From Dehalococcoidia bacterium (GTDB lineage: Bacteria > Chloroflexota > Dehalococcoidia > Plut-88900): a stretch of 64,000 nt of DNA. Below are positions 5,091 through 59,800 of this stretch, in pieces. The DNA lies in the NCBI GenBank assembly GCA_965197585.1, contig OZ240215.1, forward strand, positions 256,001-320,000. Reading direction: 5' to 3'. The notes beneath the pieces are model-generated. The model did no database searches. It saw only the letters and a program-made list of their open reading frames with translations, and was not told the origin of the DNA. Each line of letters begins with the position of its first letter. Within the stretch, counting starts at the first letter, position 1. A program made the translations under genes and the position numbers.

Positions 5091-5158
5091 CCAATTAGTG
5101 ACGGAGGAGAATGTCGTATAGTCCTGCGCCCTCGTTCTGCGAGGGCGAGGGAATAGCC

Positions 5159-5440
5159 ATGCGTTCGCGAAACACCGACAAGCGAAAAAGTCCCCGGAAG
5201 CGTGGAGGACGGACTGTTGTCCGGCTCGATACGGCGGCCCTCTGGAGGCGGCTCACCCTGTTGAACCGTTCCCAGAACTGGCTCGCCAGGGAGGTCGGGG
5301 TCAGCCCCGGATACATGTCGATGCTGGTCAATGGGGGGCGCTCACCCTCCGGGCGCATCCGCCGCCGGATGCAAATGGCTCTCGGCGTGAACGACTTCAA
5401 CCAACTGTTTACTTTGGAGGTGACGGATGAACAGCTCTAA
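5159..5440 (+). CDS. XRE-family HTH regulator
   Basis: SQNWLAREVGVSPGYMSMLVNGGRSPS. Confidence 0.85.
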   Translation: MRSRNTDKRKSPRKRGGRTVVRLDTAALWRRLTLLNRSQNWLAREVGVSPGYMSMLVNGGRSPSGRIRRRMQMALGVNDFNQLFTLEVTDEQL

Positions 5441-5759
5441 CACAAAATTATGCTTCGATGGCCACACGCACCGAAGCGCCGCTGATGGCAGCGACCTGTC
5501 CTACCTGGGCGGCGTTCTGCCTCAGGACTTCCCGGAGCGCCTCGAAGGACTAAAGGAGGCCAGCGGCCTCTCCTGGGGTGCGATGGCCAGGTCCATCGGA
5601 GTGGACCGCAAGCAGCTGATGAGGTGGCGCAAGAAGGGCACTGAACCGTGCGGAGGGGCGATGCACGCCATCTTCCGCTTCGCAATCCGGATGCCCGACG
5701 GCCTGGCCATCCTCATGAGCGAGAGATTCGAGAAAACCCTCTTTAGGGAGGGACGCTAG
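5427..5759 (+). CDS. XRE-like HTH regulator
   Basis: FPERLEGLKEASGLSWGAMARSIGVDRKQLMRW; SD GGAGG. Confidence 0.75.
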   Translation: MNSSNTKLCFDGHTHRSAADGSDLSYLGGVLPQDFPERLEGLKEASGLSWGAMARSIGVDRKQLMRWRKKGTEPCGGAMHAIFRFAIRMPDGLAILMSERFEKTLFREGR

Positions 5760-5944
5760 ATGCACGGCCCTGCCGGGCGCATGGCGCAACGGCGGCACGG
5801 CGGGGCCGGTTAGAGACGGCTACCGGGCATTCACCCCATCCGTCGGTGCCCGGGGCCAAGCACAGACTTTTGACCTGGGCCAAAGGCCTGACGAGTTACT
5901 AAAAGACCAATACTTTGCTACCACGAATCGGAGGACATGAAGAA

Positions 5945-6178
5945 ATGATGACAATACATGACAGACTGCTGAGGCGTCGACAGGTTGAGGAAATCACGGG
6001 CATGAGCCGCTCGTCGATCTATCGGCTGATGCAGGACGGTGAATTCCCCCGGCCCGTAAGGATCGGCCCTGCCGCCGTCAGGTGGAGGTCGAGCGATATC
6101 ACGGCATGGTTGGAGTCACGGCCGGTTACCAGGAGTGAATTTGACCCGCCGAATTCGGCCTGGAAGCGGCCTTCATAA
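5945..6178 (+). CDS. AlpA-family excisionase/regulator
   Basis: LLRRRQVEEITGMSRSSIYRLMQDGEFPRPVRIG. Confidence 0.9.
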   Translation: MMTIHDRLLRRRQVEEITGMSRSSIYRLMQDGEFPRPVRIGPAAVRWRSSDITAWLESRPVTRSEFDPPNSAWKRPS

Positions 6179-43364: not shown

Positions 43365-43600
43365 GGTAGACCAAGCGGTACTGTAGACAGAACTTTTCAG
43401 TGGGTAGTGCCACTTTAGGAAGTGCAGTCGTAAAGGGCGAGGAAATTTTCACGGTTCAAATCCGGCTAGGTGACCCCGACCGTATAAAAGGCAGAACCTT
43501 TACGATGAATTTTGGATTGGCACTTTGAGGAACAGTGCCAGTAGGTCGCTGCTTGGTTCGAGTCCAGTTAGGTGGGCCTGGCTTGACGGTAGACAGAACT
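43365..43600. repeat. Three tandem att-like sites, GGT-N3-CC-N12-AGRCAGAAC
   Basis: Starts at 43365, 43469, 43571 (spacing 104/102); two are preceded by GGTTCRARTCC. Confidence 0.75.
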
Positions 43601-45156
43601 CCGCCGTTCAGGGCCATGTCCTCGGTTCTCTTCCCCGGTATGGGGCTGTCGTCCGGCATGGGCACCGTATACCGGACGACAGCCTTGCCGGGCATGACGA
43701 CGATCTCCTTGACGAAGGTCTCGATGAAGGCCCTGCGCTCGGTCAGCTCGCTGTCCTTCAGGAACTCGCTCATGTCCTGGGCGTAGGTAGTGATGGTCTC
43801 CACGTCGTCCAGGACCTCCCTGCGCTGGGAGAGAATCGCCCTTGCCTCTTCCGCCGAAGCCTCAAGACGCCGCTGCCGCTCCCGGTGCTCTTTGATGCGG
43901 TCTGAGGCGTCGGCCATGTCGGTGTCGGTGGTCTCCACCAAGTGCCAGATGCGGCCCAGCTTGCGCTTCACGTCCTCAAGCTCATCCTCGATGGTCTCCA
44001 GCCGCTTGCGCTGCTCGGCGGCAACGCCGTCCATCCGTTCGTCCACCACCTTTACCAGGGCGCGGATGTTGCCGTCGGTGAGGATGTTGGAGCGAATGTT
44101 GCCGACGATCATCTCCTCGAATCGCCGGGCGTTGATCCTCGGCGAATCGCAGGCTTCCTTGCCGCGCTTCATGATGGACTGGCAGACGTAGTAGGAGAAC
44201 TGGCCGCTCTTGGCCTCCTGCCCGCTGAACGCCCGGTCGCACTCCTTGCACTTGACCAGACCGCTGAGCAGGTAGGTGCTCCCGACGCGGCGGGGGTGAG
44301 TCCTCTTGGGCGCCCTTGAGCGCATCAGCCGTTTCACGCGGCGGAATTGGGCCTTGGAGACGATGCTGGGGAACGCCTTCTCGACGCGCACCGGGTCGGC
44401 CTTGTCCTTGGCGTTCGTGCCCCAGACCAGAGCGCCTGTGTAGGCTTCGTTTCTGAGTAGGAGATGGACGCCGTTCTTGGACCAGAGCTTTCCTGCGGGG
44501 CTGGCGATGCCCTCGTCGTTGAGGGCGCGGGCGATGTCCAGCATCCCCCTACCGGCCTCGGCCATGTCAAAGGCGCTCTTGACGACACGGGCCGCATCCT
44601 CGTCGGGTTCCAGGGTGGGGCGCTTCTTGGGTCCGTCCTGGACGTAGACCTTGCGGAAGCCGTAGGGCACCCTGCTGGCGACCCAGAAGCCGCGAGACGC
44701 CGCCTCGCGCATCCCCCGCGTGACCTCCTGGGCCAAATTTTCGCTGTAGAATTCGTCCACGCTCTCGATGATGCCCTCAAGCAACCTGCCGGTGGCGGTG
44801 TCCTCGGCTTGCTCGGTTATGGAGACGACGCGGACGCCCTTGCGCCTGAGCATGGACTTGAAGGCGACGGCGTGCTCTCGCTTGCGTGTGAACCGGCTGA
44901 ATTTCCAGACCAAAATCTCCTGAAAGGGAGCATTGGGCTTGGCGGCCTCGTCGATCATCTTGCGGAACTCGGGGCGGTCGGCGATGCGCCCGCTCTCGGC
45001 CTCGTCCACGTACTCGCGGGCGACGATGTAGCCGTTCTTCTCGGCGTAGTCCCTCAGCGCCCTGAGCTGGGCGGAGACGGAGAGGTCCACGTCCTGGCGG
45101 TCGCTGGACACCCTGGCGTAGAGCGCTGCGGGGGTGTAGTCGGTCTTATCATTCAT
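43456..45156 (-). CDS. Large serine recombinase (resolvase + recombinase + Zn-ribbon/coiled coil)
   Basis: YARVSS, SRFTR, YLLSGLVKCKEC, YYVC; SD AAGGAGG; 3' end reads through att-like sites. Confidence 0.95.
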   Translation of the reverse strand: MNDKTDYTPAALYARVSSDRQDVDLSVSAQLRALRDYAEKNGYIVAREYVDEAESGRIADRPEFRKMIDEAAKPNAPFQEILVWKFSRFTRKREHAVAFKSMLRRKGVRVVSITEQAEDTATGRLLEGIIESVDEFYSENLAQEVTRGMREAASRGFWVASRVPYGFRKVYVQDGPKKRPTLEPDEDAARVVKSAFDMAEAGRGMLDIARALNDEGIASPAGKLWSKNGVHLLLRNEAYTGALVWGTNAKDKADPVRVEKAFPSIVSKAQFRRVKRLMRSRAPKRTHPRRVGSTYLLSGLVKCKECDRAFSGQEAKSGQFSYYVCQSIMKRGKEACDSPRINARRFEEMIVGNIRSNILTDGNIRALVKVVDERMDGVAAEQRKRLETIEDELEDVKRKLGRIWHLVETTDTDMADASDRIKEHRERQRRLEASAEEARAILSQRREVLDDVETITTYAQDMSEFLKDSELTERRAFIETFVKEIVVMPGKAVVRYTVPMPDDSPIPGKRTEDMALNGGVLSTVKPGPPNWTRTKQRPTGTVPQSANPKFIVKVLPFIRSGSPSRI

Positions 45157-45173
45157 GGGTGCGTCCTCCTTGC

Positions 45174-45371
45174 TCATTCCTGGTCGTTCCTGCGGGCCTC
45201 GGCCCGTTGGCGGCGCTCCTGCCGCAGCCACTCCCGCTCCTCCATGTACAGCCGGATGGCCTCGCGGAGGAACTCGCTCATGGTGCGGTCATCCTCCTTG
45301 AGCATCTGCTGCACCTGCTCCGCCAACTCCGGGGGCATGGAGAAGCTGATGACCTTCGTGGTCCTGGGCAT
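45174..45371 (-). CDS. CopG/ribbon-helix-helix regulator
   Basis: KVISFSMPPEL...RTMSEFLREAIRLY. Confidence 0.85.
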   Translation of the reverse strand: MPRTTKVISFSMPPELAEQVQQMLKEDDRTMSEFLREAIRLYMEEREWLRQERRQRAEARRNDQE

Positions 45372-45597: not shown

Positions 45598-45915
45598 CTA
45601 GGGGGTTGGGAAGTCCACGAGGCCGCTGCTGAGCAGCGCGGCCACGCCCTTGGCCGACAGGGCCAGAACCAGCCCGACCACCGCCATGACGACGGCGGTC
45701 TTGGCCTTGCCCCCGCCCCGCTCCTCGCCCCCCTCGGCCATCAGGATGAAGCCGGCCCAGACGATGGCGAAGAGGCAGAGGCCGGCGGCGGCGTAGACCA
45801 TCGCCGTGAGCACGCGGTCGAACTGGCGGAGCATCTCCTGCTCCTCCGGCGGGGCCGCGCCGGTGGTCGCCAGCGCAGCCCCGGCCAGAATCGTCATTGC
45901 CAATACCCGCCTCAC
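45598..45915 (-). CDS. TrbC/VirB2-like pilin
   Basis: Two TM helices around GGGKAK; GTGA coupling with the upstream gene. Confidence 0.65.
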   Translation of the reverse strand: MRRVLAMTILAGAALATTGAAPPEEQEMLRQFDRVLTAMVYAAAGLCLFAIVWAGFILMAEGGEERGGGKAKTAVVMAVVGLVLALSAKGVAALLSSGLVDFPTP

Positions 45916-47642
45916 CAGGGCCACTCCCATCCCAGCAGGTCGAACCACTGGCGCAGGCCGTCTGCGGGCTCCTGCTCGGCAGGCGGGTCCTCCGGCTCCG
46001 GCTGGGGCAGGACCAGCGCCTCGAAGGGGTCGTCGCTGCCGACGCCGGACGACGCAAGGGCGAGGGACTCGTCCCTGCTCCCCGTGACGGCCGCCCGCTC
46101 CACCACCTCGGCCTTCACGTGCTCGGGGTGGACGATGGTGAGCGTGACCTGCTTGTCGATCGTCCTGGCCGGCACGTATGCGTAGGCGTAGGCGGAGACG
46201 GTGTGTTCCGTCGTGGTGCCGTCGTCGTGGGTGACGGTGATGGTGTCGCTGTCGCTGTCGGAGTCGCTGGCCCCCGGGCGGTACAGGCTCACCGTCTCGG
46301 TGCGCTCCTCCGTCCGCTCCGGGTGGTGGGTGAGCACGGTCAACGGGGGGATGGGTATGCTGAGGCTCGCCTCCAGGCTCACGTCCACGCTCACGGCGTG
46401 AATCGCCTGACCATTCCCGATGGGCAGCCGGAAGCGGGTCTCGCCGTCGGGGATGAAGGCGACGCTTGTGCTCGACGCTCCCGTCGAGGCGGTGACGGTT
46501 CCAGTGACCGCCGTCACCTGGGCGTCCATCAGGGACGTCTGGGTGACGCTCTCGTGCCCGGCCACCGTCTGGAGCTCGACCGGGTGCTCGATGGACGTGA
46601 CGCACTCGGCCGTGATGACGCCGCTGACTGCTCCCGGCGTCCAGCCCAGGGACGAGAGCCTGACGTCGCAAAGCTCCCCGTCGATTTCAGGGAGCGGGTA
46701 CGGGATCTGGTCATGCTCGACGGTCAGCGCCCCGGCCTGGCCGAGGGTGTCCTCCCAGGACACCGTGAAGGACGGCGCGGGTCCGTGCAGGGGGAGGGAG
46801 TAGTCGATGCGCTCCCCCTCGGCGAGCGTTGCCGAGCCCCAGAAGCGCAGCCACGTTCCCTGCGGCCCGCCGAATGCCCGCACCCGGATGTCCAGGGCGG
46901 TGGCGGCCCGAAGGGTGACGGCGGCACGGTCGCCGGAGACGGTGAGCCCCTCGACGAATATCCGGCGTCCCTCCACAGGCTCGGTCAACTCGAAGTCGAT
47001 CTCGTCCCGCCAGGGCTCGTGGTCGTCGGCCAGGGCAGACTCCGGGACGGCCACGACCGCCGCCATGAGGACGGCCAGGGCCACGACCGGAATCCAGCCC
47101 ATGCGGGGCTTCCTGCGTCTGCTCTGCAAGGTCTCGGCTTTATGCCCTTGTCCGCGCCCGTTCCCGGCGTCCTTGTTCCTGCGCTTGCCGAACCAGCGCA
47201 TCCGCCCGTTGCGGCGCTCCTTGTTCTTGCGGGTCTTCCTGTTCTTGCGCAGCCTCGCCAGGGCGCGTCCGGCGCGTTTCGCCATCAGGCTCAGCGGGCA
47301 GGGGCCGCTCCTGACCGGCTGCGGGGGCGCGGGCGGCTCGCTCCTCACCAGCTGGGAGACCGGCCCTGCGTAGAGCCGCGCCCCCAGCCGGTACTTCAGC
47401 AGGTCGGCGGCCACCAACGGCAGCCGCCGACCGCCAATCTTCCCGACGACCATGACGATGCCGACCAGTCCGAAGAGGACGGCCAGGGCCATCCGCACCT
47501 CGGACGGGCCGACCGGGGCGTAGCGGTATGCGCCGTAGGACAGGGCGCACACCGCCGTCACCGCCACGACCTGCGGGAAGGTGAATCCCAGCAGCACCCG
47601 GTCCTCGGCCTGAACGTGAGTCGGTACCTCGTGTTCTCTCAT
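45912..47642 (-). CDS. PrgI-family protein fused to a large extracytoplasmic domain
   Basis: HEVPTHVQAEDRVLLGFTFPQ N-terminus, TMs, basic linker, beta-rich acidic C-terminus. Confidence 0.7.
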   Translation of the reverse strand: MREHEVPTHVQAEDRVLLGFTFPQVVAVTAVCALSYGAYRYAPVGPSEVRMALAVLFGLVGIVMVVGKIGGRRLPLVAADLLKYRLGARLYAGPVSQLVRSEPPAPPQPVRSGPCPLSLMAKRAGRALARLRKNRKTRKNKERRNGRMRWFGKRRNKDAGNGRGQGHKAETLQSRRRKPRMGWIPVVALAVLMAAVVAVPESALADDHEPWRDEIDFELTEPVEGRRIFVEGLTVSGDRAAVTLRAATALDIRVRAFGGPQGTWLRFWGSATLAEGERIDYSLPLHGPAPSFTVSWEDTLGQAGALTVEHDQIPYPLPEIDGELCDVRLSSLGWTPGAVSGVITAECVTSIEHPVELQTVAGHESVTQTSLMDAQVTAVTGTVTASTGASSTSVAFIPDGETRFRLPIGNGQAIHAVSVDVSLEASLSIPIPPLTVLTHHPERTEERTETVSLYRPGASDSDSDSDTITVTHDDGTTTEHTVSAYAYAYVPARTIDKQVTLTIVHPEHVKAEVVERAAVTGSRDESLALASSGVGSDDPFEALVLPQPEPEDPPAEQEPADGLRQWFDLLGWEWPW

Positions 47643-47671: not shown

Positions 47672-47980
47672 CTAGCCGGTGGGGGTGCTGCTGGTGCCGC
47701 CGCCGGGGGCTTCCGGCTCGGGCAGCACGTCGTCGATGTCGATTCCGGGGTCCACCACGGCGTTCATCACCAGCTCCACGACGCCGTAGGCGACCAGGGC
47801 CAGGACGATGCCCGCCAGGGCGGTCATCATTGCGCTCTTGCCGCGCTCCATCTGGTGGGGCGCTCCGCTGGCCGTCAGGTACAAGTACGCGCCGTAGATG
47901 AAGAATCCGACGCCCACCGCGCCGACGATCCCCAGCAGGATGCCCACCAGGTTCGATATGGTCTGTGTAAGGTCTTCCAT
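47672..47980 (-). CDS. TrbC/VirB2-like pilin
   Basis: GAYLYLTASGAPHQMERGKSAM..ALAG; SD GAGGAG. Confidence 0.8.
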   Translation of the reverse strand: MEDLTQTISNLVGILLGIVGAVGVGFFIYGAYLYLTASGAPHQMERGKSAMMTALAGIVLALVAYGVVELVMNAVVDPGIDIDDVLPEPEAPGGGTSSTPTG

Positions 47981-48129
47981 TCCTTGCTCCTCTCTGTTAT
48001 CGAGCGTTCCGCTCGTCTCTATCGGTCGAAGTCCGTAAGCTCCGTTAGCTGCACATCTCTCCGCCTCCGTCGTGGTATTGGTCGGCGCTCTGTCGTCCGC
48101 GCCTGTGTGATTTCGTTGTCTCGGTCGGG

Positions 48130-49104
48130 CTACTCCCCGCTGCTCCTGGGCGCTCCGCCGCCGTCTCCCCCTGCCGATGGGGTCGCCATCGAGGCCGCCG
48201 AGCTCAGGCCGCTGGCTGCCGCCGACACCCCCGCGCTGGCCGCAATCGCTCCGACGGCCATGCCGCCCGGCCCTCCCGCCGCCCCGCTCATAAGCCCGAT
48301 GGTCCGGGCCGAGCGCATCAGCGACGACGGCAGGTTCATGCCGAAATAGAGCATCGAGAGCCAGGAGTCGAAGGTCCCGGCGTTGCCCATCATTGAGGGC
48401 ACCCGGGTCGCCATGTAGACGAAGGCCAACGACATGAGCAGCTTCCAGATCAGGTCCTGCACCGGCTCGAAGGCGGCGACCGACGCGAACTCGTTGAGGA
48501 AGCCGATTCCCAGGGCCAGGGCGATGAGCTGCACCGCCTGCTGGAACACCGTCGTCATGAACAGCCGCAGCCAGTGCCGTCCCCAGCCCGCCGTGTGGGG
48601 CAATATCCACAGCCCCAGCGCAATCGGGGCCAGGGCCAGCAGGATGTCTATGAGGGCCAGGCGCAGCACCATCTGCACGATCACGTAGAGGACGAAGAAG
48701 CCGTAGACCAGGTAGAGCAGGGCCAGGAGTTGCGCCATGCCCACGCTCCCGGCCTGGACGGCTCTGAGGAACGTGTCGAGGGGAGCCCTGAGCAGGTCTC
48801 CGGGGGTGACGCCCAGGGAGACGGCTATGAAGCCGGACACGGCGTCGGCCACGTCGAGGACCAGGGCGCACCACCACAGGGAAGACGCGGCGGCCACGAG
48901 GCCGAGCACGAGGCGGGGCACCATCTCCCGCCAGCCCGTCTGCTGGCGTCCAAGGTGCTCGCTCACGATGAAGCTCAGGCCCATCCAGCCGAGGATGACC
49001 ACCAGGGCGCCGGTTGTTATGGCCCAGACGACCATCCACGCCTGGCGGACCAGCTCGTGGGCGTAGGTGAGGTCGGGAGGGGTGCCGGTGAGGATGTCGC
49101 TCAT
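48130..49104 (-). CDS. VirB6/TrbL-like membrane protein
   Basis: Multi-TM, LALAPIAL..W..PHT..W, Gly/Ala/Ser-rich tail. Confidence 0.8.
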   Translation of the reverse strand: MSDILTGTPPDLTYAHELVRQAWMVVWAITTGALVVILGWMGLSFIVSEHLGRQQTGWREMVPRLVLGLVAAASSLWWCALVLDVADAVSGFIAVSLGVTPGDLLRAPLDTFLRAVQAGSVGMAQLLALLYLVYGFFVLYVIVQMVLRLALIDILLALAPIALGLWILPHTAGWGRHWLRLFMTTVFQQAVQLIALALGIGFLNEFASVAAFEPVQDLIWKLLMSLAFVYMATRVPSMMGNAGTFDSWLSMLYFGMNLPSSLMRSARTIGLMSGAAGGPGGMAVGAIAASAGVSAAASGLSSAASMATPSAGGDGGGAPRSSGE

Positions 49105-49107
49105 CGG

Positions 49108-49722
49108 CTACCCGCCCCCGCAGTTGTCGGCGTCCTCGCCGGACGCTCTTTCAACGACGCCGCAGAGGGTGCCGTGGACTCCCTCGACCACCCAGCCGGC
49201 GAAGGCCCTCGCCCAGCGCGCCGGGTTGAGGGCGGAGAGGATCTTGTCCCAGATGCGGCCCGGCTCGTGGAAGGGAATGACGCTGTAGAACTCGCCCCGC
49301 TTGCCGTCCTCGGCGACGGCCAGCATCACCAACAGGTACGCCCTGTCGCGGTCGAGGTCGGGCTGCTCGTCCAGGTCGGGGTACTCCCACGAGTACTCCC
49401 AGCCGTCGCTGCGCTCCTTCTCGCCCCCCTTGACCCGGTACATGGCGCTTATCCAGTCGCCGGTGTCGGCGTCGCGGACGGCGTAGAAGAGGTCCGCGAT
49501 CTCGCGGTCGAAGACGGGCCGGGCGACGAACTCGCCGCCCTTCTTGCGCTCGACGAACTCCCGGTCGGCGTTGACGAGGGTTATCTCGTCGCCGGGCGGG
49601 GTCTGGGCCAGGGCGATGTTGCTTGCGGGGATCGCCAGGAGCGCCGCCAATAGCAGCGCGGATGCCAGGGGAATAAACCGACTGAAAGACCGGAGTTTCG
49701 ATTTCAGCGCCAAGATGTTCAC
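49108..49722 (-). CDS. Exported hypothetical protein, first gene of the tra operon
   Basis: SD GGGAGG, GTG start, signal peptide ALA|Q. Confidence 0.75.
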   Translation of the reverse strand: MNILALKSKLRSFSRFIPLASALLLAALLAIPASNIALAQTPPGDEITLVNADREFVERKKGGEFVARPVFDREIADLFYAVRDADTGDWISAMYRVKGGEKERSDGWEYSWEYPDLDEQPDLDRDRAYLLVMLAVAEDGKRGEFYSVIPFHEPGRIWDKILSALNPARWARAFAGWVVEGVHGTLCGVVERASGEDADNCGGG

Positions 49723-50159
49723 CTCCCTGCCTATTGCCGCGAATCAGCGATTCGCCGCTGTCCCGAAAGAGTGTGGACAACCGGGACGCCCTGCATAACT
49801 ACTTGAAGGGGTACTCATATGAGCGCCCCTATAGGCCCTTGGTTTGGACACCCCTTCCGTGATGTCATTGGGGTGTACAGAGAAAGGACTTTGGCGACAA
49901 TTTGTCGTGGGTCGTGGTTTCGTAGCTAAAACAGGGGGAAATCCCCCCCTACAGGACGTAAAAAGTGAACACTTTGTCGTAAGGGCACGTTCCGCCCGCA
50001 GGGTGCAAAACGGGCCATAGTGGTGAACAAATCGCAGCCAGGAAAATCGGCGAAATCGAGCAAAACCACCCACACTGGTTGACAAGACGCAGCCCGTGGA
50101 AATTGGGGCCGGCGTCTGGGGCCGGGCCGGGGTCGAAAGTCTGGAATGGAGGCGTGTCG

Positions 50160-50993
50160 ATGGAAGCGAGGAAGCCGGTCTTCGGCAAGAGCAACAGCGT
50201 GGAGGACATGCAGCACGTGCGGCTCATGGCGCTGCTGCAAGAGCTGGAACGGGAGCACGGGCGCAAGGGAGCGGCGGCGGTCCTGGGGCTCGACCACCGG
50301 ACGCTGGGCGCCAGCCTGGACGAGGGCGTGCTGTCCCGGCGGGTCCGGGGCGCGTTGGAGCGGGCGTTGCAGGAGGGCATCGGCTCCGCCGCCGACCGGC
50401 AGCGGGAGCGCAACGACGGTCTGGAGAAGCGGTTGGAGGAGCTGGAGGGCGTCGTCGAGGCGCAGGGGAAGGAGATGCGGGTGGGACGCAGGGCGTTGGA
50501 GGACGCAATGCGGGCCGGGCGGGAGGAGCAGGCCAGGGCGCTCAGGGAGTTGGAGACAAGGCTGGCGCAGCCCCAGGCCGACGGGTCAGCCCGGGGAGAA
50601 GCGGCGACGCCCAGGCCCGGCCAGCCCAGGGGGAGGGTCACGCTCAGGCGGGAGTTCCCCGATCTCGTGACCCGCGAGCCCGCCGAGGACGACGAGGAGG
50701 TGTTCGCCGACGCCTGGGCGCTGATCGTCGAGTGGCGGGAGCTGAAGGCCGCGCACCCCAGCCGGGGCAGGGGTCCGTCGTGGCTTGCGACCCAGGAGCG
50801 GCTGCTGACGGTGGAGCTGACGCTGCTGGAAGAGCACGGGATGACGCTGCCCCCGGAGACGTACCCGCTGCGGGGCTTCGCACGGGACGGGCAGACCGGC
50901 TGGCGAAGGACCGCGCTCTACGACACGCGTAGAGCGCGGGCAAGGTGGGAGCTTCTCCGGCGCGTGCTCACCCTGTGGCTCTGGCGGAAGTAG
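50160..50993 (+). CDS. Hypothetical protein (HTH-like N-terminus, coiled coil)
   Basis: SD GGAGG; GRKGAAAVLGLDHRTL; heptad-rich middle. Confidence 0.7.
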   Translation: MEARKPVFGKSNSVEDMQHVRLMALLQELEREHGRKGAAAVLGLDHRTLGASLDEGVLSRRVRGALERALQEGIGSAADRQRERNDGLEKRLEELEGVVEAQGKEMRVGRRALEDAMRAGREEQARALRELETRLAQPQADGSARGEAATPRPGQPRGRVTLRREFPDLVTREPAEDDEEVFADAWALIVEWRELKAAHPSRGRGPSWLATQERLLTVELTLLEEHGMTLPPETYPLRGFARDGQTGWRRTALYDTRRARARWELLRRVLTLWLWRK

Positions 50994-51220
50994 CAGGCTC
51001 CGAGTGCGGGGAGTCGCGGTCAACTTTTGTGAACACTTTGGCCGCAATCTGCGGAAGGGGGCCTGCAGGCCCTCTCATCGCGGTGGCGGGCCGGGTGATA
51101 ATGACTGCGCTGTTTGGCTTTCTCCAAGGTTTCCGACCATAGAAACCTGGGTGCGTGGTCCCTGTTGCACGGGCATGACCGGAGGATGATTCGCTCTCCC
51201 CCGGTCGCCCACGAGGGAAT

Positions 51221-51428
51221 GCTGCCGAAGCGGAGTTGACGCTGGTCCTTCGCAGGCAGCGCGGGCCGAAACGACGGAGTTGGCTTAGCCCTTCGTCCTC
51301 GGTCCAGTCCGGCGGTTGGAGTGATAAGCCCTTCGCCCGTTGGACACCCGTCCGGTGGTTGGGAGTTGATCGCTTCCGTCGCTGGACACCGGTCTGGCGT
51401 TGGGAGTCGATCGCTCTCGCCGTTGGAT
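51221..51428 (+). repeat. Array of five ~42-nt hairpins with GGAGT(Y)GRY apex
   Basis: GGAGT at 51232, 51276, 51318, 51362, 51403; the stems covary. Confidence 0.8.
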
Positions 51429-51748
51429 TGCCGGGACGGAGCGCGCCCCTTGCGCCTCGTCTTCACTTGGTCGGTCGGAGTGCGCCTGCCTGTTGCAGAC
51501 AGGTTTGTCACCCCGGCTGGCTCCTCATGCTCTGCGGCATGGCTGACACGCAGCCGGGCCGCAGCTTCGACATGCGCCGGTCTGCCGATGAAAGCAGGCT
51601 GGCCGCTTCCCGTCTCGCAGCTTCCCCACTGACGGTATCCACCCTGGGCAAGCTGCGCCTTTCTCCCATGCGCTGGCCTCCGATGAAGTCGTAGAACAGC
51701 CGCTTCCCCCATAGCAGTTCCCCCGGAGTCGATTCCCCGACGAATCAC

Positions 51749-51773
51749 CCCCGTATCAAGTACGGGGCAGGCT
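51749..51773. repeat. Short REP-like palindrome nested in a longer hairpin
   Basis: CCCCGTA-TCAAG-TACGGGG-CAGGCT. Confidence 0.6.
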
Positions 51774-51919
51774 CTGGGGCGAGCTGCGTTTTCTTCACCC
51801 CCGCTCCGTCTCCCGCGTCCGGCATCCGACCGTGGGCGGAGTGCGTCCAGCGTCAACCCATCACCACCGACTCCCGCCGTGGATGCCGCGCGGGTGTCAA
51901 CAACCGAAAGGAGGCGTCT

Positions 51920-51949
51920 ATGCACGTCAACGAGGTCCATCGCCGCTGA
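51920..51949 (+). CDS. Putative 9-aa leader peptide MHVNEVHRR
   Basis: Perfect SD AAAGGAGG at 51907-51914, 5-nt spacer, followed by a terminator-like hairpin. Confidence 0.55.
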   Translation: MHVNEVHRR

Positions 51950-51988
51950 CGGCGGGGCCTCCGGCTCTCACCACACATCCCCATCCAC

Positions 51989-52027
51989 AAGGGTCGTCTC
52001 GTTCGTTCGAGGCGGCCCTTCTTCTTT
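51989..52027 (+). terminator. Terminator/attenuator hairpin before the 4xHTH gene
   Basis: 13-bp stem AAGGGTCGTCTCG/CGAGGCGGCCCTT, then CTTCTTT. Confidence 0.6.
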
Positions 52028-52084
52028 GCCCGCAGGCGGGCGCAGGCCAAAGGCAACACAACACAACAGAAGGAGGACGGACCG

Positions 52085-53212
52085 ATGACGACGGCAACAC
52101 AGACGACTGGCACTCGGACGACGGAGACGACGACGAGGACGGCGGAGAGCGAGCTGCGGGCGGCTGCGAGGCGGCGGGGGGTCACCATGAAGGAACTCGC
52201 GGCCATGATGGGCGTGAGTGCGGGCTACCTGTCGCAGTTTGCGAACGGGCGCAGGCCGTGGACGCCGAAGATGCGCCAGAAGGTTATGGCGGTCCTGGGA
52301 GAGGTTCCCGGCCAGGGGACCGTCTACCGACAGGGCGGCGTGGTGACCGGCGAGAGCAGCTTCATCCGGGAGCGCGCCCGCGAGATGGGATTGACCATGC
52401 GGGACCTGGCCGACCGCGCCGGGGTGTCCTACGGATACATGACCCACGTCGCCCGCGGCCACGGCAACATGGGCGTCAAGGTCCAGACCCGGATCGAGTC
52501 GGCGCTCAAGGCCCCGGCGAAGGTTGCCCCGGCGCAGTGCGCCAACCGCCCGGCGAGCGTGGTGAGCGGGCAGAGCAGCTACGTCCGGGAGCGCGCCCGC
52601 GCCCTGGGCATGACCATGCGGGAGCTGGCCGAGCGGGTCGGCGTGTCCGCCAGCTACATGTCAATGGTGTCCCGGGGCCGCAGCAACATGGGCGTGAGGG
52701 TCCAGGCGCTGGTCGAGGCGGCGCTGGAGGCCGAGGCGACGGTCGCGTCAGCGCAGCTTGCCTGCGTCGACGCGAAGGCCGTGTGGGACCGCATGGACGC
52801 TCACGGGTTCAGCCAGAACGAGGTCGCCCGGCGCGCCGGCATCAGCTCCTCGTACCTCTCCCTCATCATGAACGGCAAGTCCACTCCGTCGGCGGGCGTC
52901 CTGAAGAGGCTGCACGCCGTGCTGTTCAAGCACACGAAGTCGGAGGAGCAGGTCATGCCCGCCGAGGTGAAGGTGCTGGGCTGGCGGAAGGGCGAGCGGA
53001 GCGGCATGGTGGTGCACGGCGCGGGTGGGCCGGGGCGCAGCGGCAGGCTCGGCGGTCCCGCCGTCCGGGTCGGCGGCCGGGTGCCCTGGGGCGCGAAGGC
53101 GGAGTACGCCTACCGCGCCGGGTACGACGGCGCGGGCCGGGTGTCGATGACGCCCGTCCTGATGCCGGGCTACTCCGCCATGCTCAAGCAGCCGGAGCCG
53201 GCAGCGGCCTAG
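52085..53212 (+). CDS. Regulator with four tandem XRE HTH domains and an unrecognised C-terminal domain
   Basis: TMKELA/TMRDLA/TMRELA/SQNEVA + GVSxxY repeats; SD AAGGAGG. Confidence 0.85.
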   Translation: MTTATQTTGTRTTETTTRTAESELRAAARRRGVTMKELAAMMGVSAGYLSQFANGRRPWTPKMRQKVMAVLGEVPGQGTVYRQGGVVTGESSFIRERAREMGLTMRDLADRAGVSYGYMTHVARGHGNMGVKVQTRIESALKAPAKVAPAQCANRPASVVSGQSSYVRERARALGMTMRELAERVGVSASYMSMVSRGRSNMGVRVQALVEAALEAEATVASAQLACVDAKAVWDRMDAHGFSQNEVARRAGISSSYLSLIMNGKSTPSAGVLKRLHAVLFKHTKSEEQVMPAEVKVLGWRKGERSGMVVHGAGGPGRSGRLGGPAVRVGGRVPWGAKAEYAYRAGYDGAGRVSMTPVLMPGYSAMLKQPEPAAA

Positions 53213-53288
53213 AGACCTACGGGGGAAGGACACCGAATTGCGGTGTCCTTCCCCCGGCACGCCAATGTATGCTGCCTTTTTTTGCGTT

Positions 53289-53687
53289 TCAGCCCCTGCG
53301 GTCGCGGCCGCCCCGCCGATGCGCCGCCTTTCGCTCTGGGCTCTTGCATCGCGGCGGCGCCGCCGGTCTGAGGACCCTGGCGGAACTGCGCTCGCCCCCG
53401 GCGGAGCCGGGCGTCCCATTCCCCGTTTCCCGCCGGATGCTCCAGTCGGTGAACAGATGGCCCAGGCCCAGGTCGTCGGCCAGGTCCAGCAGCGCCATCT
53501 GGTGCCGGAAATGGGGCCGCACCCCCTCCTTCCACCACCGCTTCACGGTGTGGGGATAGGTCCCGAGACGGCGGGCGATCTCCGCCCACGGCAGGTCCGA
53601 CTCCTCCTTGAAGCGCACCAGGCGCTGCGGGAAGTCGTCGGGGAAGACGTAGGTCCTTCTGCTGTGATGTGTCCGCTGTCTCGGCAT
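53289..53687 (-). CDS. XRE-like HTH regulator (paralog of 5427-5759)
   Basis: FPDDFPQRLVRFKEESDLPWAEIARRLGTYPHTVKRW. Confidence 0.75.
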   Translation of the reverse strand: MPRQRTHHSRRTYVFPDDFPQRLVRFKEESDLPWAEIARRLGTYPHTVKRWWKEGVRPHFRHQMALLDLADDLGLGHLFTDWSIRRETGNGTPGSAGGERSSARVLRPAAPPRCKSPERKAAHRRGGRDRRG

Positions 53688-53852: not shown

Positions 53853-56800
53853 CTAAGGCGTCGGGTTGACGTAGTTGGACCAGCCGCTCAGGCCCGCCGC
53901 ATTGATGGCCTTCACCCGGTACACGTGCTTGACCCCCGCGGTGACGCCGGTGTCGGTGAAGGTCGTCGCCGTGCTCTCGGTGTCCGCCACGTACACCAGC
54001 AGGGCGCTCTCGCCCTCACTGGGGCGACGCCGCAGGACCTGGTAGCCCGTGATCGAGTCGTCATTGGGGGCCGTCCAGCTCAGCACGATGTGCCCGTCCG
54101 CGTTGACCGTCGCCGTCAGGCTCGTGGGCGCGGGCGGAGGGCTTTCGGGCGTCTGCTGGTCGTCTCCGGCCTCTTCCTGCTCCTCTTCCTCCGGCCCGGG
54201 GAGGGTGACCTGCACCCCTCCGGACAGCGTTGTCCCGCCCTCCGTGCAGATTCCGCCCGAACCGCACGCCTGGCCGGTCACGAGGCTGAACACGATGTCG
54301 TCGGAGCCGTCGGGGTCCAGGAAGAAGATCCAGGCGTTCTCCAGCCCGTCCTCCTCGTGCTGTCTCACGCTCCTCACCGCGGCGCCGGTCAACGACAGCG
54401 AGGGCGTCGTCTTCTCGAACGATGCCACCGCCATGCTGAAGGTGACTATCACCTGGGGCCGGTCGTCTGCGCCATTGTGGCGAGCCGATTGGAACCGGCT
54501 GTCCGGCCGTGATGCCGTGAGCGGCACCGGCGCCGCCGTCACCTCGGCAGTCGCCGCGCTGGTCAGGGTCTCCTCGTTATCGGCGTCGTCGGTGAAGGTG
54601 ACCCGCACCTGGATGGTCTTTCCCTGCTCGCTGGCGGTCAGGGTGTAGGTGGAGCCGGTGGCCCCGCCGATGTCCGACCCCCCTGCGATCCACTGGTAGC
54701 TGTAGGAGACGCTAGTCAGTCCGTCCTGGTCGGCAATGTTCGACGTATCCACCGTAAGGGTCTCTTCCACCTGGGGCGTCCCGCCGATGGTGGGCTTGCC
54801 CGTGGCCTCTCGGTTGGGCGCCGCCGTAACGGCCACGGTAGCCGCACTGGTCAGGGTCTCCTCGTTATCGGCGTCGTCGGTGAAGGTCACCCGTACCTGG
54901 ATGGTCTGTCCCTGCTCGCTGGCGGTGAGCGTGTAAGTCGAGCCGGTGGCCCCCGCGATGTCCGACCCTCCGGCCAACCACTGGTAGCTGTAGGAAACGT
55001 TGGTCAGGCCGTCCTCGTCTGTGATCGAGGACGTGTCCGCGGTGAGGGTCTGCTCAACCTGGGGAGTGCCGCTGATCGTGGGCGCGCCTGCGGCTGACGT
55101 GTTGGTGGGCGGCGCCTCGGCGGGCCCCGTTACGGTCGCAGTGGGACTGTTGGTCAGCTGCCGCGGGCTGTCTTCCCTGGTGCAGATTGCTCCTGTGGTG
55201 GTGCAGGACCGGTTGGCGGGGAGGGTGATGCCAACGTCGCTATTGTCGTCGGGTTCGACGGTGATCTCCCAAAGGTCGTTGCGTCCGTCGACTCTGCGTG
55301 CCCCGGTGACGTCGCCTTCAGAGAGGCTGAAAGCATCGTCGCGCATGTTCACGTAGCTGACGCCGACATCTTCACTGAAGAGGACGCGGAAGGTGAAGGC
55401 TGTGGAGCCGTCGTGGCTGTCGGGCAGGCCCTGGAATGCGGCCGTGAGGAGCGCCTGAGCCGCCGCCGCCACCGCCTCAGTGGCCTCGCTGGTCAGGGAT
55501 TCCTGGTTGTCCGCATCGTCGGTGAAGCTCACCTGCACCTGGAAGGTGTAGCCCTCGTCCGTCGGGGCGAGTGTGTAGGTCGAGCTCGTCTCTCCCAGTA
55601 ATACAAGGATGACGCCCGACTTGCTGGCTAACCACTGGTATCTGAAGACGGCGTTCTCCAGCCCGTCCTCGTCGTCAATGGCCGACGTGTCCGCCGTCAG
55701 CGTCTGGCCCACCTGCGGCGTGCCCGTGATGGCGGGCAGGCCCGTCGGCTCGGAATTCGGCCTGGCCGCCACGATCACCGTACTGCGGCTGGTCAGGGAC
55801 TCGGTGGTACCGCGGTCGTCGGTGAAGGAGACCCTGACCGCGAAGGTCCGTCCCTTGTCGGCTGGGGCCAGTGTGTAGGTCGAGCCGGTCTCTCCCGGCA
55901 TTTCGACGTTGATGTAGTAGCTGGTCCCGGTGTTTGCGTCGACGACCGACTGGTTGTGGAGCCACTGGTACTCGAAGGTTGCGTTGGTCAGCCCGTCGGC
56001 GTCATCGATGGCCGACGTGTCCGCCGTCAGCGTCTCGCCGACCTGGGGCGTCCCCGTGACGGCCGGAAGGCCCGTCGGCTCGGTGTTCGGCGGGGGCGCC
56101 ACGGCCACCGTGGCCTCGCTGGTCAATGTCTGCTCGTAGTCGGCGTCGTCGGTGAAAGTCACCCTGACCTGGAAGGTGGAGCCCTCGTCATCTGGGATAA
56201 GCGTGTAGGTCTGGCCCGTCTCTCCCGGTATTTCAATGCTGAGGATGTTGCTGGTTCCGGTTACGTCGTCGATGACCGTCTGGCTGGAAATCCACTGGTA
56301 GCGGTAGGCCACGCTGGTCAGCCCGTCGGGGTCGTCAATCGCCGAGGTGTCCGCCGTGAGCGTCTCGCCGACCCGGGGCGTGCCGTTGACGGAGGGAAGG
56401 CCCGTGGGCTCGGAATTCGGGGCGGCGGCCGCCACCGCCTCCGTGGCCGGGCTGGTCAGCGTCTCGCTGTACCCGCGGTCGTCGGTGAAGGAGACCTCCA
56501 CGTGGAAGGTGTGGCCCTCGTCCGCCGGGACAAGCTTGTAGGTCGAGTCCGTCTCTCCCGCATATTCATACGTGGTGGACGACTTCGTGGCGAACCACTG
56601 GTACCTGAAGACGGCGTTCTCCATCCCGTCGGCGTCCTCGATGGCCGAGGCGTCCACGGTCAGCGTCCGGCGCACCTGGGGCGTCCCGCCGATGGTGGGC
56701 TCCCCGGTTGCCAAGGTGTTTGGCGGGGGCGCCACCGCCTCCGTCGGCGCGCTGGTGCGGCTCTCCTGGTTGTGCGCATCGTCGGTGAAGGAGACCTTGA

Positions 56801-59800
56801 TCTTTATGGTCTTGCCTTCGTCCGCGAGACCCAGGGTGTACGTGGAGTCCGTCTGGTCCGCTATCTTGGAGTTATTCCGGATCCACTGGTACAGGTAGGT
56901 GTAGGACGCGTGGGTCAACCCGTCGGCGTCGGAGATACCCGACGTGTCAACGGTCAGGGTCTGGCCCACCTGGGGCGTCCCGCCGATGGTGGGACTGCCG
57001 GTGGCCCTGGTGTTGGCCGGGGTGGTCCTCACGTTGTAGGTGTCGCGCAGGATCAGCCATGCGGCGGCGGATGCGCCGTAGTCGTCGCCCGTGGCGACGT
57101 GCCGGAGGAGCACCCAGCGGTCGACGTAGTTGGCGTCCTCCGTGCTGGTGATCGTCACCGTCTGGGGCGTGTTCCAGTTGTCTGCGGTGAAGGTCAGGCT
57201 GGCGGGACTCACCGTCGCCCGGCCCGTCGGACGTTGGCCGATGGCCACGGTGACGTCGTCCGCCGGCTGGGACGCCAGCGCCACGGTGTATGTGCCGCTC
57301 TCGCCTTCATCGATCTTAAGGTCGGTCCGGCTCAGGGCCAGCCCCCCGTCGGGGCGGTCCACGTCGGCAAGGGTGGACCCGTTGGTCGCCGGCTGCCCGG
57401 TGAACGTGAGCAGATTATTGCCATATAGGTCCTCTAAGATGGACTCACCCGTCTCGACGAAGAGGTTGTCGTAGGACACGGCCACCGTCTGCCCCTGGGT
57501 GACCGGCTCCGCCATCGTCAAGGTGACCGTGTCTCCGGACACCGCGGCGTCGCTGCGCGCCGCCACTTCCCCGTCCACCCGGACGTCCAGCGCCAGGCTC
57601 TGGAGGAGGCTGGTCTGCACGCCGAAGGCTCTCAGGATGGCCGGGGACTTGATGCTCTCGTTGAAGGTGACCGCCACCTGCGCGCCGTCGGTCGAGACCT
57701 GGGCGCTGGCGAACTCGGGGCTGACCGCGTCCACCCGGTGGGCGGTGCTGCCGAGCCCAATGTGGTCCAGCACGGCGTCCCGACCCTCGGAGTCCCGTAT
57801 CCAGCTGTCCCGTACCCAGTTCTTGGTCCCGGTCTGGGTCTCGGTGACCTTTACATCCAACCTCAGGCTGCTGGGCGGGAGCAGCAGCGCGAAGGTTTCT
57901 TCGTCGCCCGGCACCACCGTGTATTCGAGGATGACCTTGTTGCCGTCGGTCCTCGCGTAGTGGGCCGTCCTGGTCTGGCCGCCCAGCTCCAGGTCCACCT
58001 CGGCGGCGTGCTTCTTTGAACTGTTGTAACTGACCGTCACGTCGTCGCTGAAGGCGACGGTCACCTGGATGGTGTCGCCAAGGCCGTAGACCCGGTCGGT
58101 GCCCGGGTTGGAGGTGAAATCGACGGACGTAACGGTGGTCGGAACGTATTGCCTCTGGCGAGTATCTCCGTCACCGCCTTCCCCGCCGGCCCTCGCCGTG
58201 GCGGGCTGTGGCGGGGCCAGCATGTGCGCGCTCATGGCGGCGTGGTTTGCCAGGTCCAGGTGTTTTCGTTGAAATTCCTTGTACGTGCGCTCCCATGTGA
58301 AGGTGACGTCGCGGCCTGATTGGGAGCGCGCGATGCCGTTGGCCGCTCTGAGCGGGAGCGTGTAGGTGGCTTCGCCCTTTCCTTTGCCGTCAACGTTGTA
58401 GATCCACCTGAGGAACAGCGTGTGGAAATCGTCGAACTGCCCTTCCCAATAGCCCTGCCAGGCCCGGGCGGCGGCCCCGGAGCCGTGGGTTCTGAATGTG
58501 GCCGTGATCCAGACCGGGTCCGTGTCTCCGGTCTTATCGGTCGTTACGTTCAGACGCCGCAGCTCCCACCCGTCTGCTGGGCCGAACTTGTCGGGTTCGT
58601 GGTCGTAGCTAAAGTGGGTCTTCCCGTAGACGATGTTGCCGTTATCATCTACTGAGGTGTATCTTCTTGATTTGAATTTCACCTCGCCTGCCCGCTCCTC
58701 TTCCCCAGCGGTCTGGCCAACCCGGTTCTGCACCTCGTCGTTGCGGATGGAGACCAATACCTGGTCCCCGGCGCTCCAGCCCGGAGCGTGGGTAAATTGC
58801 CATACCCACGGAGTAGTAGCATGCGCAAGCTGCGCGTCCGCGAAGGGCAGCTCCACACCACCGCCAAGCGTCAGCGTCCATCCGGCAACCTCGTCAGCGC
58901 TGGGGTAGGCATTTCGATCAAATGATATTTGCGTTTGGGTGGTAATGTCAGAGATCTGCTCAATCTCATACCCGATCCAGGGGTACCGGGGCTGGCCTGG
59001 AGTCCCGATTGTTACAGTTTCATCCCGCCCGGTCACGATCAGGTTGTTGGTTAAATCGCCGGCATGGCTCGCAGTAGCACGGTTGTATCCGACAAAAGCA
59101 GTGCTTCCTATTGTGTCCGTCGTCATCAGCGCCGTCCAGATGGTCCGGTAGCCGTAAGCGTTCGGCAGTGGGGGGCCGACGAGTTTCACTGAGACGGAGT
59201 CGTCCTCCGCCCAGGTCAGCCCGTGGTTGCTCCATGAGGAACGGGTGACGTTCCTGAAGAGGTCTATGCTTTGGTTGGCCTCGCTGAGGAGGAATCTCTG
59301 CCCACCGAGTTCCAGTGCGAGGTCTGGCTCGAATGTGGTTGGGAATAGCGGGGCAATTGTGAAGTTGAGGGAATCGATTGTGAGCGAGCCGGTGTCAATC
59401 TGTGCCCTGGCGAGGTTGACTACCGAGTACCTTGTTCCACGGTAAGTAAATTCGTTTGACCCAAGAGTTCCCGTGTCGGGATTGAAGCCGATTATTGTTA
59501 CGGTATTTCCCGAAACGGTCACTTGGGACCTACCCACCGTCATGGTCGTTGACAGGAAGGAGCGATCCCCGCCGGCGATGGTGTCGTACGTTGGGCAGTG
59601 TTCGGCCGGCGGGGCGGAGCACGTGACGGTGTAGCCGTCGCCGAACGTGAAGGGCACGAAGGGGCCCTCCGTCTCCGGCTCCGTGTCGTCGGTCGCAAAG
59701 GGCGACTTCGTGTTGGTCTCGGTGTACACCGCGATCTCCAGCGAGTTGCCTGTGATGATGTCATTCGTGTGCGGGGACAGGCTATCCAGGTCGGCTCCCA

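Follow-up and report, generated by a model that had tools for sequence, protein, structure and literature searches.

A tandem hairpin array of variable unit number within a larger structured RNA unit of Dehalococcoidia islands

Bacteria have few large RNAs of complex, conserved fold, several of which have proved to be new machines or RNA-only assemblies. ROOL, GOLLD, HEARO and OLE are ornate non-coding RNAs (ncRNAs) of at least about 0.5 kb, multi-domain, conserved and often carried on mobile DNA; to our knowledge, none of them contains a hairpin array of variable unit number. The C4 RNAs of P1 and P7 and the CI RNA of P4 are antisense RNAs, encoded in leaders on mobile elements and presenting their loops by stem-loops. 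The antitoxins ToxI, CptI and TenpI follow the order promoter, tandem units of ~36-45 nt, terminator, gene, the ToxI repeats being near-identical and processed by an adjacent ToxN-type endoribonuclease. The present analysis concerns a tandem array of five hairpins at positions 51221-51428 on the forward (+) strand of a 64,000-nucleotide stretch (the window) of a Dehalococcoidia bacterium (GenBank assembly GCA_965197585.1, contig OZ240215.1, positions 256,001 to 320,000). This array is the variable middle module of a larger non-coding unit at ~51108-51666 (+), roughly 550 bases long, which belongs to Dehalococcoidia (Chloroflexota) islands with type IV secretion system (T4SS) genes; the related loci lie in Dehalococcoidia/Chloroflexota metagenome-assembled genomes. 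The nearest described system is STAXI (RF01728), whose units, in the passages of Weinberg et al. (2010, PMC2864571) that deal with it, occur in tandem two to three times near ssb, antirestriction and integrase genes. The same passages assign the motif no function and judge it, on energetic grounds, more likely to be RNA than single-stranded DNA (ssDNA). Structured leaders are also described on Gram-positive conjugative plasmids, namely the zipper-type attenuator leader of pLS20 (PMC13401043) and the processive antitermination of conAn (PMC8191782), as the outlines given in those papers present them.

The five units of the window are listed below with their folding energies and with z-scores taken against dinucleotide shuffles. 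R1 denotes a covariance model of units 3 onward, seeded with 21 units.

51221-51260, + strand: hairpin unit 1, alpha-type apex GACGCUGGUC; -21.3 kcal/mol, z -3.14
51263-51305, + strand: hairpin unit 2, apical stem GGC/GCC; -22.8 kcal/mol, z -3.08
51307-51345, + strand: hairpin unit 3, beta-type apex GUGAUAAGCC; -18.7 kcal/mol, z -3.95; R1 match of 45.6 bits, in the seed
51350-51387, + strand: hairpin unit 4, gamma-type apex UUGAUCGC; -19.6 kcal/mol, z -3.94; R1 match of 51.2 bits, in the seed
51392-51428, + strand: hairpin unit 5, gamma-type apex UCGAUCGC; -15.7 kcal/mol, z -1.95

Each unit is a plain two-tier hairpin of high ensemble frequency (in folding without a pseudoknot search), built from a G-U-rich outer stem, a GGAG:CUUC inner stem and an apex of the form GGAGU(U)GA, so that GGAG is paired in the inner stem rather than exposed in the loop. 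In unit 5, for example, four of the eight outer-stem pairs are G-U. The first-pass annotation of this stretch, made from the letters without database searches, had described five consecutive hairpins, and these are recovered: R1 places units 3 to 5 exactly where it had drawn them, and unit 2 lies where it had been located (51264-51304) but folds one base wider at each end. The linkers are short, as described there, with a measured range of 1-4 nt instead of 2-4 nt. GGAGT stands at 51232, 51276, 51318, 51362 and 51403, with spacings of 44, 42, 44 and 41 that agree with the reported period of 41-44 nt; 142 copies of this pentamer occur on both strands of the whole 64-kb window. Tandem Repeats Finder (TRF) reports zero tandem repeats in 51221-51428 even at a score of 30, in keeping with the earlier remark that no repeat is invariant, and the units are therefore diverged copies. 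R1 matches three places in the window, units 3-5 only, and recognises unit 5 at 40.8 bits (E 4.7e-9) although this unit is outside the seed. Within the 3.43-Mb genome the model likewise gives three matches, all in this array, with 150 of 2680 first-look candidates scored; dispersal of the repetitive extragenic palindrome or bacterial interspersed mosaic element (REP/BIME) kind is rejected on this restriction to one array in both genome and window.

A further property of the array appears in the minimum-free-energy fold of 51200-51450, where units 4 and 5 (51350-51428) pair mutually as a nested alternative to two local hairpins. Similar tandem hairpins can therefore take register-shifted conformations, with possible relevance to co-transcriptional folding or switching.

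Folding distinguishes between the strands and between RNA and DNA. As + strand RNA, 51200-51450 reaches -130.7 kcal/mol (z -3.81, with none of 200 shuffles as good), against -93.8 kcal/mol (z +1.07) as - strand RNA, and the reverse complements of units 1 to 5 reach -16.0, -15.5, -10.3, -4.5 and -6.8 kcal/mol (z -1.8 to +0.6). With DNA parameters the + strand reaches -49.6 kcal/mol (z +0.88), a value equalled or bettered by 164 of 200 shuffles. The same asymmetry extends to homologues: G-U makes up 18.5% of the pairs in 186 distinct units, the mean energy is -19.5 on the + strand versus -13.1 for the reverse complement, and 170 of the 186 are more stable on +. The proposal that the G-U pairs imply RNA from the + strand, already made in the first-pass annotation, is thereby upheld. 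Moreover, fixed G-U positions, a duplex-type -10 box ahead of the unit and a terminator-like end argue together for a transcript.

These folds bear directly on the very improbable alternative of an ssDNA element of the transferred strand, acting as a single-strand origin or priming site, an Frpo-like promoter or an attC-like site. Such an element would suit islands with T4SS genes, the primase and Rad52-like genes downstream in relatives and the strict strand specificity of the array, and the STAXI authors, in the passages on their motif, raised a like possibility for it (PMC2864571). Against it, the DNA fold of the + strand is no better than shuffles, G-U is fixed at particular pairs (GU in 71 of 94 rows at one of them), a conserved duplex-type -10 box precedes the unit, the genome has no match to the relaxase family PF03432, and the island recombinase is of the serine type, not an integron integrase. 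The coupling-protein family PF02534 is likewise unmatched in the genome. Units 3 onward end in GTTGGAC, which fits the GTTRRRY of attC sites; an attC-like site is nevertheless rejected on a 5' arm that is not an exact complement, on the poor DNA fold and on the serine recombinase.

Coding by the array is rejected as well. Periodicity of G+C at third codon positions (GC3) is absent across ~50980-51900 and strong in the flanking 50079-50993 (+) and 52085-53212 (+). The first-pass annotation had raised a conserved protein-coding frame as the contrary case, and none is found: open reading frames (ORFs) of 152 and 306 aa run over the array, a stop-free + frame exists in merely 7 of 53 homologous arrays, and array lengths among homologues spread across all residues modulo 3, which again speaks against coding. 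Contigs from RNA libraries of two studies cover 51146-51454 and 51433-51673, which supports transcription weakly; these are assembled contigs that show no molecule ends, from libraries of a kind in which DNA is possible. The RNA runs were picked by means of this stretch with a required likeness of at least 85%, and their uncovered parts, which carry no evidential weight, are bins 52109-52663 (the 5' part of the downstream 4xHTH regulator gene) in three runs and 50000-51109 in run X1, run X4 covering everything. The array is very probably a structured RNA that is non-coding and is neither ssDNA nor CRISPR.

Comparison across loci reveals two kinds of unit. R1 yields 267 matches (E<=0.01) in 741,572 bases from 100 loci, 266 of them on the strand of the upstream P0002-family gene, and the single opposite-strand match overlaps a + match. 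Unit 1 (GCUGSC...) and unit 2 (GGGCCGA...) are positional orthologues, while units 3 onward form a duplicating family, GUCYGGCGG...CCGYYGGRC. Pairing is kept in both. For units 3 onward, assessed in 94 distinct rows from the best 150 matches (alignment A4, fitted to the model), 90.4% of stem cells pair, compared with 30-46% when the partners are slid; one pair occurs as AU in 64, GU in 17 and GC in 12, and G-U is the majority state at several pairs (GU 71/94, UG 75/94 and GU 62/94). For units 1 and 2, represented by 39 orthologues, 92.6% of cells pair versus 32-55% when slid, and one pair swaps between CG (32) and GC (6). The earlier statement that the stems differ and yet stay paired is therefore confirmed through G-U and compensatory changes across homologues.

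Unit number, which the first-pass annotation had suggested comparing among loci, does vary, from three to eight. Counted by span-limited folding in 53 unique RNAs, it is 3 in 5 RNAs, 4 in 22, 5 in 10, 6 in 11, 7 in 2 and 8 in 2, the remaining RNA carrying an insertion. The number tracks the class of the gene that follows: at least five units precede the 4xHTH gene in 16 of 17 RNAs, and at most four precede a Zn-ribbon gene in 24 of 31 (loci L033-L112, kinship uncontrolled). It is this correlation, together with helix-turn-helix (HTH) proteins on both flanks of the array and a GGAGT spacing of 41-44 bp, that would fit duplex-DNA operators or iterons at intervals of about four helical turns, with the 4xHTH protein or the P0002 HTH protein as ligand and the hairpins as a by-product of palindromes. 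That explanation is very unlikely, since stems that change and still pair, by means of G-U on one strand only, are unexplained by duplex recognition, and arrays are also present without a following 4xHTH gene.

The apical sequences fall into a small set of classes:

alpha class: apical sequence GGAGUUUGACGUUGGUCCUUC
beta class: apical sequence GGAGUGAUAAGCCCUUC
gamma class: apical sequence GGRGUUGAUCGCYUC
delta class: rarer

The classes share GGAGU(U)GA and prefer particular positions, alpha being the first unit in 40 of 52 arrays and gamma the last in 47 of 52. Few columns are as invariant as those of the gamma loop UGAUCGC, and gamma stems vary more than this loop. Gamma loops also hold the palindrome GATC, and TTGATCGC occurs 104 times within the arrays of 80 loci. 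The apices therefore do differ in sequence, as the first-pass annotation had observed, but they are restricted to a few conserved, position-linked classes and are not free variants.

This restriction weighs on the function which that annotation had proposed, an antisense-RNA immunity array resembling P1 C4 or P4 CI, whose loops would pair with the leaders of their own or sister elements. A leader-like plus-strand RNA on a mobile element, a variable unit number and loops that in part differ between the two copies in this genome are what such an array would show. The loops, however, are more conserved than the stems. Complements of the five loop 8-mers, sought as exact + strand matches within +-4 kb in 673,633 bases of 80 loci, occur 1, 6, 3, 6 and 0 times with no recurrent position, so that the suggested match of loops to leaders of other elements did not materialise in this range. 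The suggested Rfam comparison gave no C4, isrK or other family within the array (49500-53500 searched at E<=10) and, at gathering score, no family in 16 homologous loci (141,813 bases). Near-identical arrays moreover reside together in one genome, G006 (loci L016, L020, L023, L030 and L032). Antisense immunity is accordingly unsupported and has only a slight chance of being the function.

The array lies between two conserved domains, and the order of modules is constant across related loci: -10-like box, 5' domain, array, 3' domain and terminator-like end. The elements of the unit in the window are:

51020-51041, + strand: conserved box TCAACTTTTGTGAACACTTTGG, from an alignment of 74 unique upstream regions and kept in the own-genome paralogue
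51097-51102, + strand: -10-like box GATAAT, with a weak -35-like CTCATC at 51074-51079
51108-51220, + strand: 5' domain, near-invariant in sequence, a multi-helix junction closed by CUUUC/GAGGG
51429-51666, + strand: 3' domain, with hairpin A at 51435-51461, three more conserved hairpins, a terminator-like stem and a U-rich tail
51616-51623 with 51650-51657, + strand: terminator-like stem, CGCAGCUU with AAGCUGCG, read from the sequence

Relatives carry GTGAAC-type repeats at the position of the 51020-51041 box, which we infer to be a candidate operator. Of 64 anchored homologues, 48 have [AGT]ATAAT, 47 of them at one shared offset (-19 from GGCTTT), and transcription is expected to start near the predicted 51108-51110. 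RNAalifold supports both domains. The 5' domain (21 sequences) folds with 32 pairs, including swaps of GC:11/UA:10 and GC:8/UA:6/AU:2, and the 3' domain (24 sequences) folds with 42 pairs, 14 of them with double changes such as CG:9/UA:8. In an nhmmer search the 3' domain directly follows the array in 80 of 99 loci. At the 3' end of the RNA in relatives, a stem CGCAGCU/AGCUGCG is followed by a UCUUCUUU-type tail, and homology stops there, ending in the alignment with ...GCUGCGUCUUCUUU. From the 5' core through the 3' domain, the RNAs are 461-1321 nt long with a median of 521, typically ~0.46-0.6 kb.

The constant neighbour of the RNA is the gene upstream of it.

50160-50993 (ORF from 50079), + strand: P0002-family gene, likely start M27, 277 aa, with GC3 periodicity

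The P0002 gene precedes the RNA at nearly all loci. The protein combines an HTH of the Cro type with a long coiled coil and, at its C-terminus, a conserved helical domain rich in Arg and Trp; at least 1400 relatives exist, mostly of ~277 aa. The protein has no Pfam family or name (the top, sub-threshold match is ANG-1-like, 20.1 bits against a cut-off of 28.5), no match in NCBIfam and, for residues 190-304, no usable match in the ESM Atlas. An AlphaFold2 model (pLDDT, the predicted local distance difference test score, of 70.7) has N15 Cro as its top Foldseek match at a non-significant E of 0.93, with nothing in the PDB at E<=0.001. Downstream, the gene after the RNA is always on the same strand, 240-3000 nt past the P0002 gene, and its identity varies: a 4xHTH regulator, a ~165-aa Zn-ribbon membrane protein, a ~160-aa protein and, in some loci, an insertion sequence (IS). 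The first-pass annotation had tied the array to the 4xHTH gene, a link that does not hold generally, the gene being found within the fetched flanks in part of the loci only. Primase and Rad52-like genes lie farther downstream in relatives. In the ~165-aa protein, which has no Pfam match, the N-terminus is Zn-ribbon-like and the helices at the C-terminus are hydrophobic.

Inserted elements occur in loci L059, L062, L067, L110, L111 and L033, among them IS21-type IstB plus transposase, one IS110-like element and one insertion of ~750 nt; they lie between P0002 and the array, within the array or just past the RNA.

The variable downstream genes also touch on the idea of a repeat RNA cut to ~40-nt units, serving as a ToxI-like antitoxin, as small guides or as decoys against a host defence nuclease. 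The order of promoter, ~40-nt units, terminator-like stem and gene recalls such systems, and the ~165-aa gene is often next in relatives. The units, however, are diverged and not near-identical, the 165-aa protein lacks a ToxN, CptN or TenpN family match, the next gene here is the 4xHTH regulator, and large conserved 5' and 3' domains are unexpected for ToxI, so that this idea carries very little probability.

A multivalent binding platform is suggested by the repetition of the hairpins, the invariant motif at their apices and the G-U pairs fixed in their stems. The favoured reading, held tentatively and at a little under even chances, is that the array is an expandable repeat module, gaining and losing units, in a leader RNA that controls read-through; cis-acting control of read-through into the downstream genes, taken as a claim of its own, is held somewhat more loosely still. 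Under this model the array would bind several copies of an element-encoded protein, for which the linked P0002 protein is the first candidate. Occupancy of the platform would then decide whether polymerase stops at the terminator-like modules or reads through into downstream regulatory and establishment genes. The context would suit a leader: the RNA is separated from the 4xHTH gene by three terminator-like modules (51616-51666, 51700-51795 and 51989-52020), the next gene is on the same strand, and unit number tracks the class of the downstream gene.

Several observations weigh against this leader model. The RNA is larger and more sequence-conserved than typical leaders, and the gene to which it is constantly linked lies upstream rather than downstream, a linkage that suits a stand-alone RNA equally. 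A strict sigma-70 consensus scan finds no promoter anywhere in the window, and the -35 here is poor. The tails of the terminator-like modules have only a moderate U content. A binding partner, the start of transcription, the 3' end and read-through are all predicted features. The covariation consists mostly of one-sided G-U changes, with double changes at 5-6 of 15 pairs in units 3 onward and at 5 of 32 pairs in units 1 and 2; because kinship or paralogy links many units, significance is overstated by the shuffle controls. Finally, the island at ~43.4-62.5 kb is without a VirB4-like gene and may be a remnant or truncated element.

The chief competitor is a stand-alone, trans-acting ncRNA or ribonucleoprotein (RNP) with its own promoter and terminator, in which the array would serve as a protein sponge or scaffold or in RNA-RNA assembly via its GAUC/CGAUCG loops. 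Doubtful in its own right, it is nearly as likely as the leader model. Promoter-like and terminator-like boundaries, a multi-domain architecture of median 521 nt with very high 5'-domain conservation, a downstream gene that changes while RNA and P0002 stay constant, and the palindromic GATC of the gamma loops are all consistent with it. Pointing the other way, CsrA is not found in the one-contig genome, and same-strand genes always follow the RNA. A broader and less probable proposal, which nonetheless ranks well above the operator, immunity and ssDNA explanations, assigns the array to a new class of large ornate ncRNA on conjugative elements, as its expandable core. Such an RNA would form a multivalent higher-order RNP or RNA-only complex, either reprogramme RNA polymerase by RNA-based processive antitermination or shield the incoming element from a host nuclease as a decoy, and have its dose tuned by copy number; its multivalent surface would consist of the fixed G-U pairs, the GGAGU(U)GA apices and the self-complementary GAUC/CGAUCG loops.

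The stretch between the RNA and the next gene contains the following features:

51700-51795, + strand: second terminator-like module, enclosing a small hairpin CCCCGUAUCAAGUACGGGG followed by GCGUUUUCUU; scan site at 51770-51785
51908-52020, + strand: leader features ahead of the 4xHTH gene, with a strong Shine-Dalgarno-like AAAGGAGG, a mini-ORF and a 13-bp terminator-like hairpin at 51989-52020
51921-51950, + strand: the mini-ORF, 9 codons, MHVNEVHRR
52085-53212, + strand: 4xHTH (Xre-type) regulator gene, 375 aa, in the GC3 frame; HTH_3 E 2.9e-30, repeated HTH stretches

The layout of 51908-52020 resembles a leader-peptide attenuator; its match to the Rfam family CC2171 is weak, at 28.9 bits against a gathering score of 75. 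For the 4xHTH protein, the top NCBIfam match is TrbA, below its cut-off. An Arg/Gly/Pro-rich ORF of 575 aa at 51832-53559 is rejected as lying in the wrong frame, GC3 and Pfam both pointing to 52085-53212.

The small hairpin at 51745-51775, CCCCGUAUCRAGUACGGGG followed by CAGGCUCUG, has a distribution of its own, occurring at 27 places in 23 of 100 sources, on both strands and also inside coding regions, and once in this genome. Double changes preserve its pairing (CCUCGU..ACGAGG, CCCCGC..GCGGGG). The depth over its bin is 5000-6000 in two RNA libraries, versus ~15 alongside, and loose ends flank it left and right. The hairpin could be a dispersed signal at the RNA or DNA level, for example one that stabilises 3' ends or marks a site of recombination or nicking.

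The surrounding island stands out by composition, with 65-70% G+C at 44-62.5 kb in a window of ~58%, and includes:

43456-45231, - strand: large serine recombinase
45912-47642, - strand: PrgI-like protein, a weak match
47672-49039, - strand: T4SS-pilin-domain protein
53853-62327, - strand: 2824-aa ORF with six ZirU-family stretches, an fn3 domain and an SWM repeat

The 2824-aa ORF probably encodes a giant protein of the island with a surface or adhesion role. Elsewhere the genome has VirB4-like genes at four sites, including one in a second G+C-rich island immediately left of the window. That island holds a paralogous P0002-RNA locus (G000:C1:248692-249265, - strand), ~7 kb left of the window start, as well as the VirB4-like AAA_10 gene at window position ~519. 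The paralogue is 68% identical to the 1.1-kb gap and has four hairpins versus five here; the apical stem of its unit 2 is GAU/AUC where this array has GGC/GCC, a compensatory change.

Beyond this genome, a 701-nt query matches 9 of 61 related genomes (the window's own counted), often in several copies. An alignment-based scan of GTDB species genomes gives 551 confirmed stretches, of which 80 loci were fetched. R1 applied to a sample of the class under stricter filters finds matches in 2 of 151 genomes, both of family f1, a figure that concerns the searched genomes only. With at least 1400 P0002 relatives and 551 stretches, the RNA is common in one uncultivated lineage, and it is located at a regulatory hub of conjugative-element islands. 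It therefore offers a handle on gene control in the mobile elements of Chloroflexota, which are nearly unstudied, and its natural series of three to eight units provides a test of how RNA valency sets regulatory output. Titles and abstract beginnings of the literature on Dehalococcoidia, SAR202, integrative and conjugative elements, sponge, and tandem hairpins with conjugative elements describe no such RNA. A hairpin array that gains and loses units may be an unprecedented feature.

Among known systems, a CRISPR array is rejected because the units abut, with linkers of 1-4 nt, and differ in sequence. Crude scanning of the genome by k-mers and TRF turned up coding or 60-nt tandem repeats alone and no CRISPR-like array, cas families not being searched, which agrees with the first-pass view that this is not CRISPR; an RNA mimic of CRISPR repeats is rejected on the same scan. 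Type III antitoxins share the order of promoter, tandem units, terminator and gene; a ToxI-like antitoxin is rejected on the diverged units (TRF none) and on the lack of a ToxN, AbiQ, CptN or TenpN-type gene downstream. CsrB and RsmZ likewise carry many hairpins with a short G-rich motif repeated on one RNA, but GGAG here is paired in the inner stem and not loop-exposed. A sponge of that kind is rejected because PF02599 gives 0 matches in the one-contig genome (completeness 91.9%), the control search having hit 3 of 14 known genomes. C4 and CI resemble the present RNA as plus-strand, leader-type RNAs on mobile elements with loop-presenting stem-loops, and differ in that no model matches here, no complementary sites are found, the loop classes are conserved and the RNA is much larger.

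The long structured leaders of pLS20 and conAn, as outlined in their papers (PMC13401043, PMC8191782), are followed by terminators and govern entry to element operons, the arrangement suggested by the leader model. The pLS20 leader, in the same outline, uses one long imperfect stem competing with a terminator and has neither a tandem array nor a sequence relation to the RNA described here. The RNA falls among the mobile-element-associated structured RNAs. It differs from ROOL, GOLLD, HEARO and OLE in that no Rfam family matches it, and it resembles them in its length of ~0.5 kb or more, its multi-domain build, its strong conservation and its linkage to mobile elements. RF01728 has no match in 49500-53500 or in the 16 homologous loci. 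STAXI units are pseudoknots in Enterobacterales, whereas the present units, three to eight in number, fold as two-tier hairpins with large flanking domains in Dehalococcoidia. Despite these differences, both consist of tandem structured units, both pose the same question of RNA or ssDNA, and both lie beside DNA-handling genes of mobile DNA, here a serine recombinase and a T4SS pilin and, in relatives, primase and Rad52.

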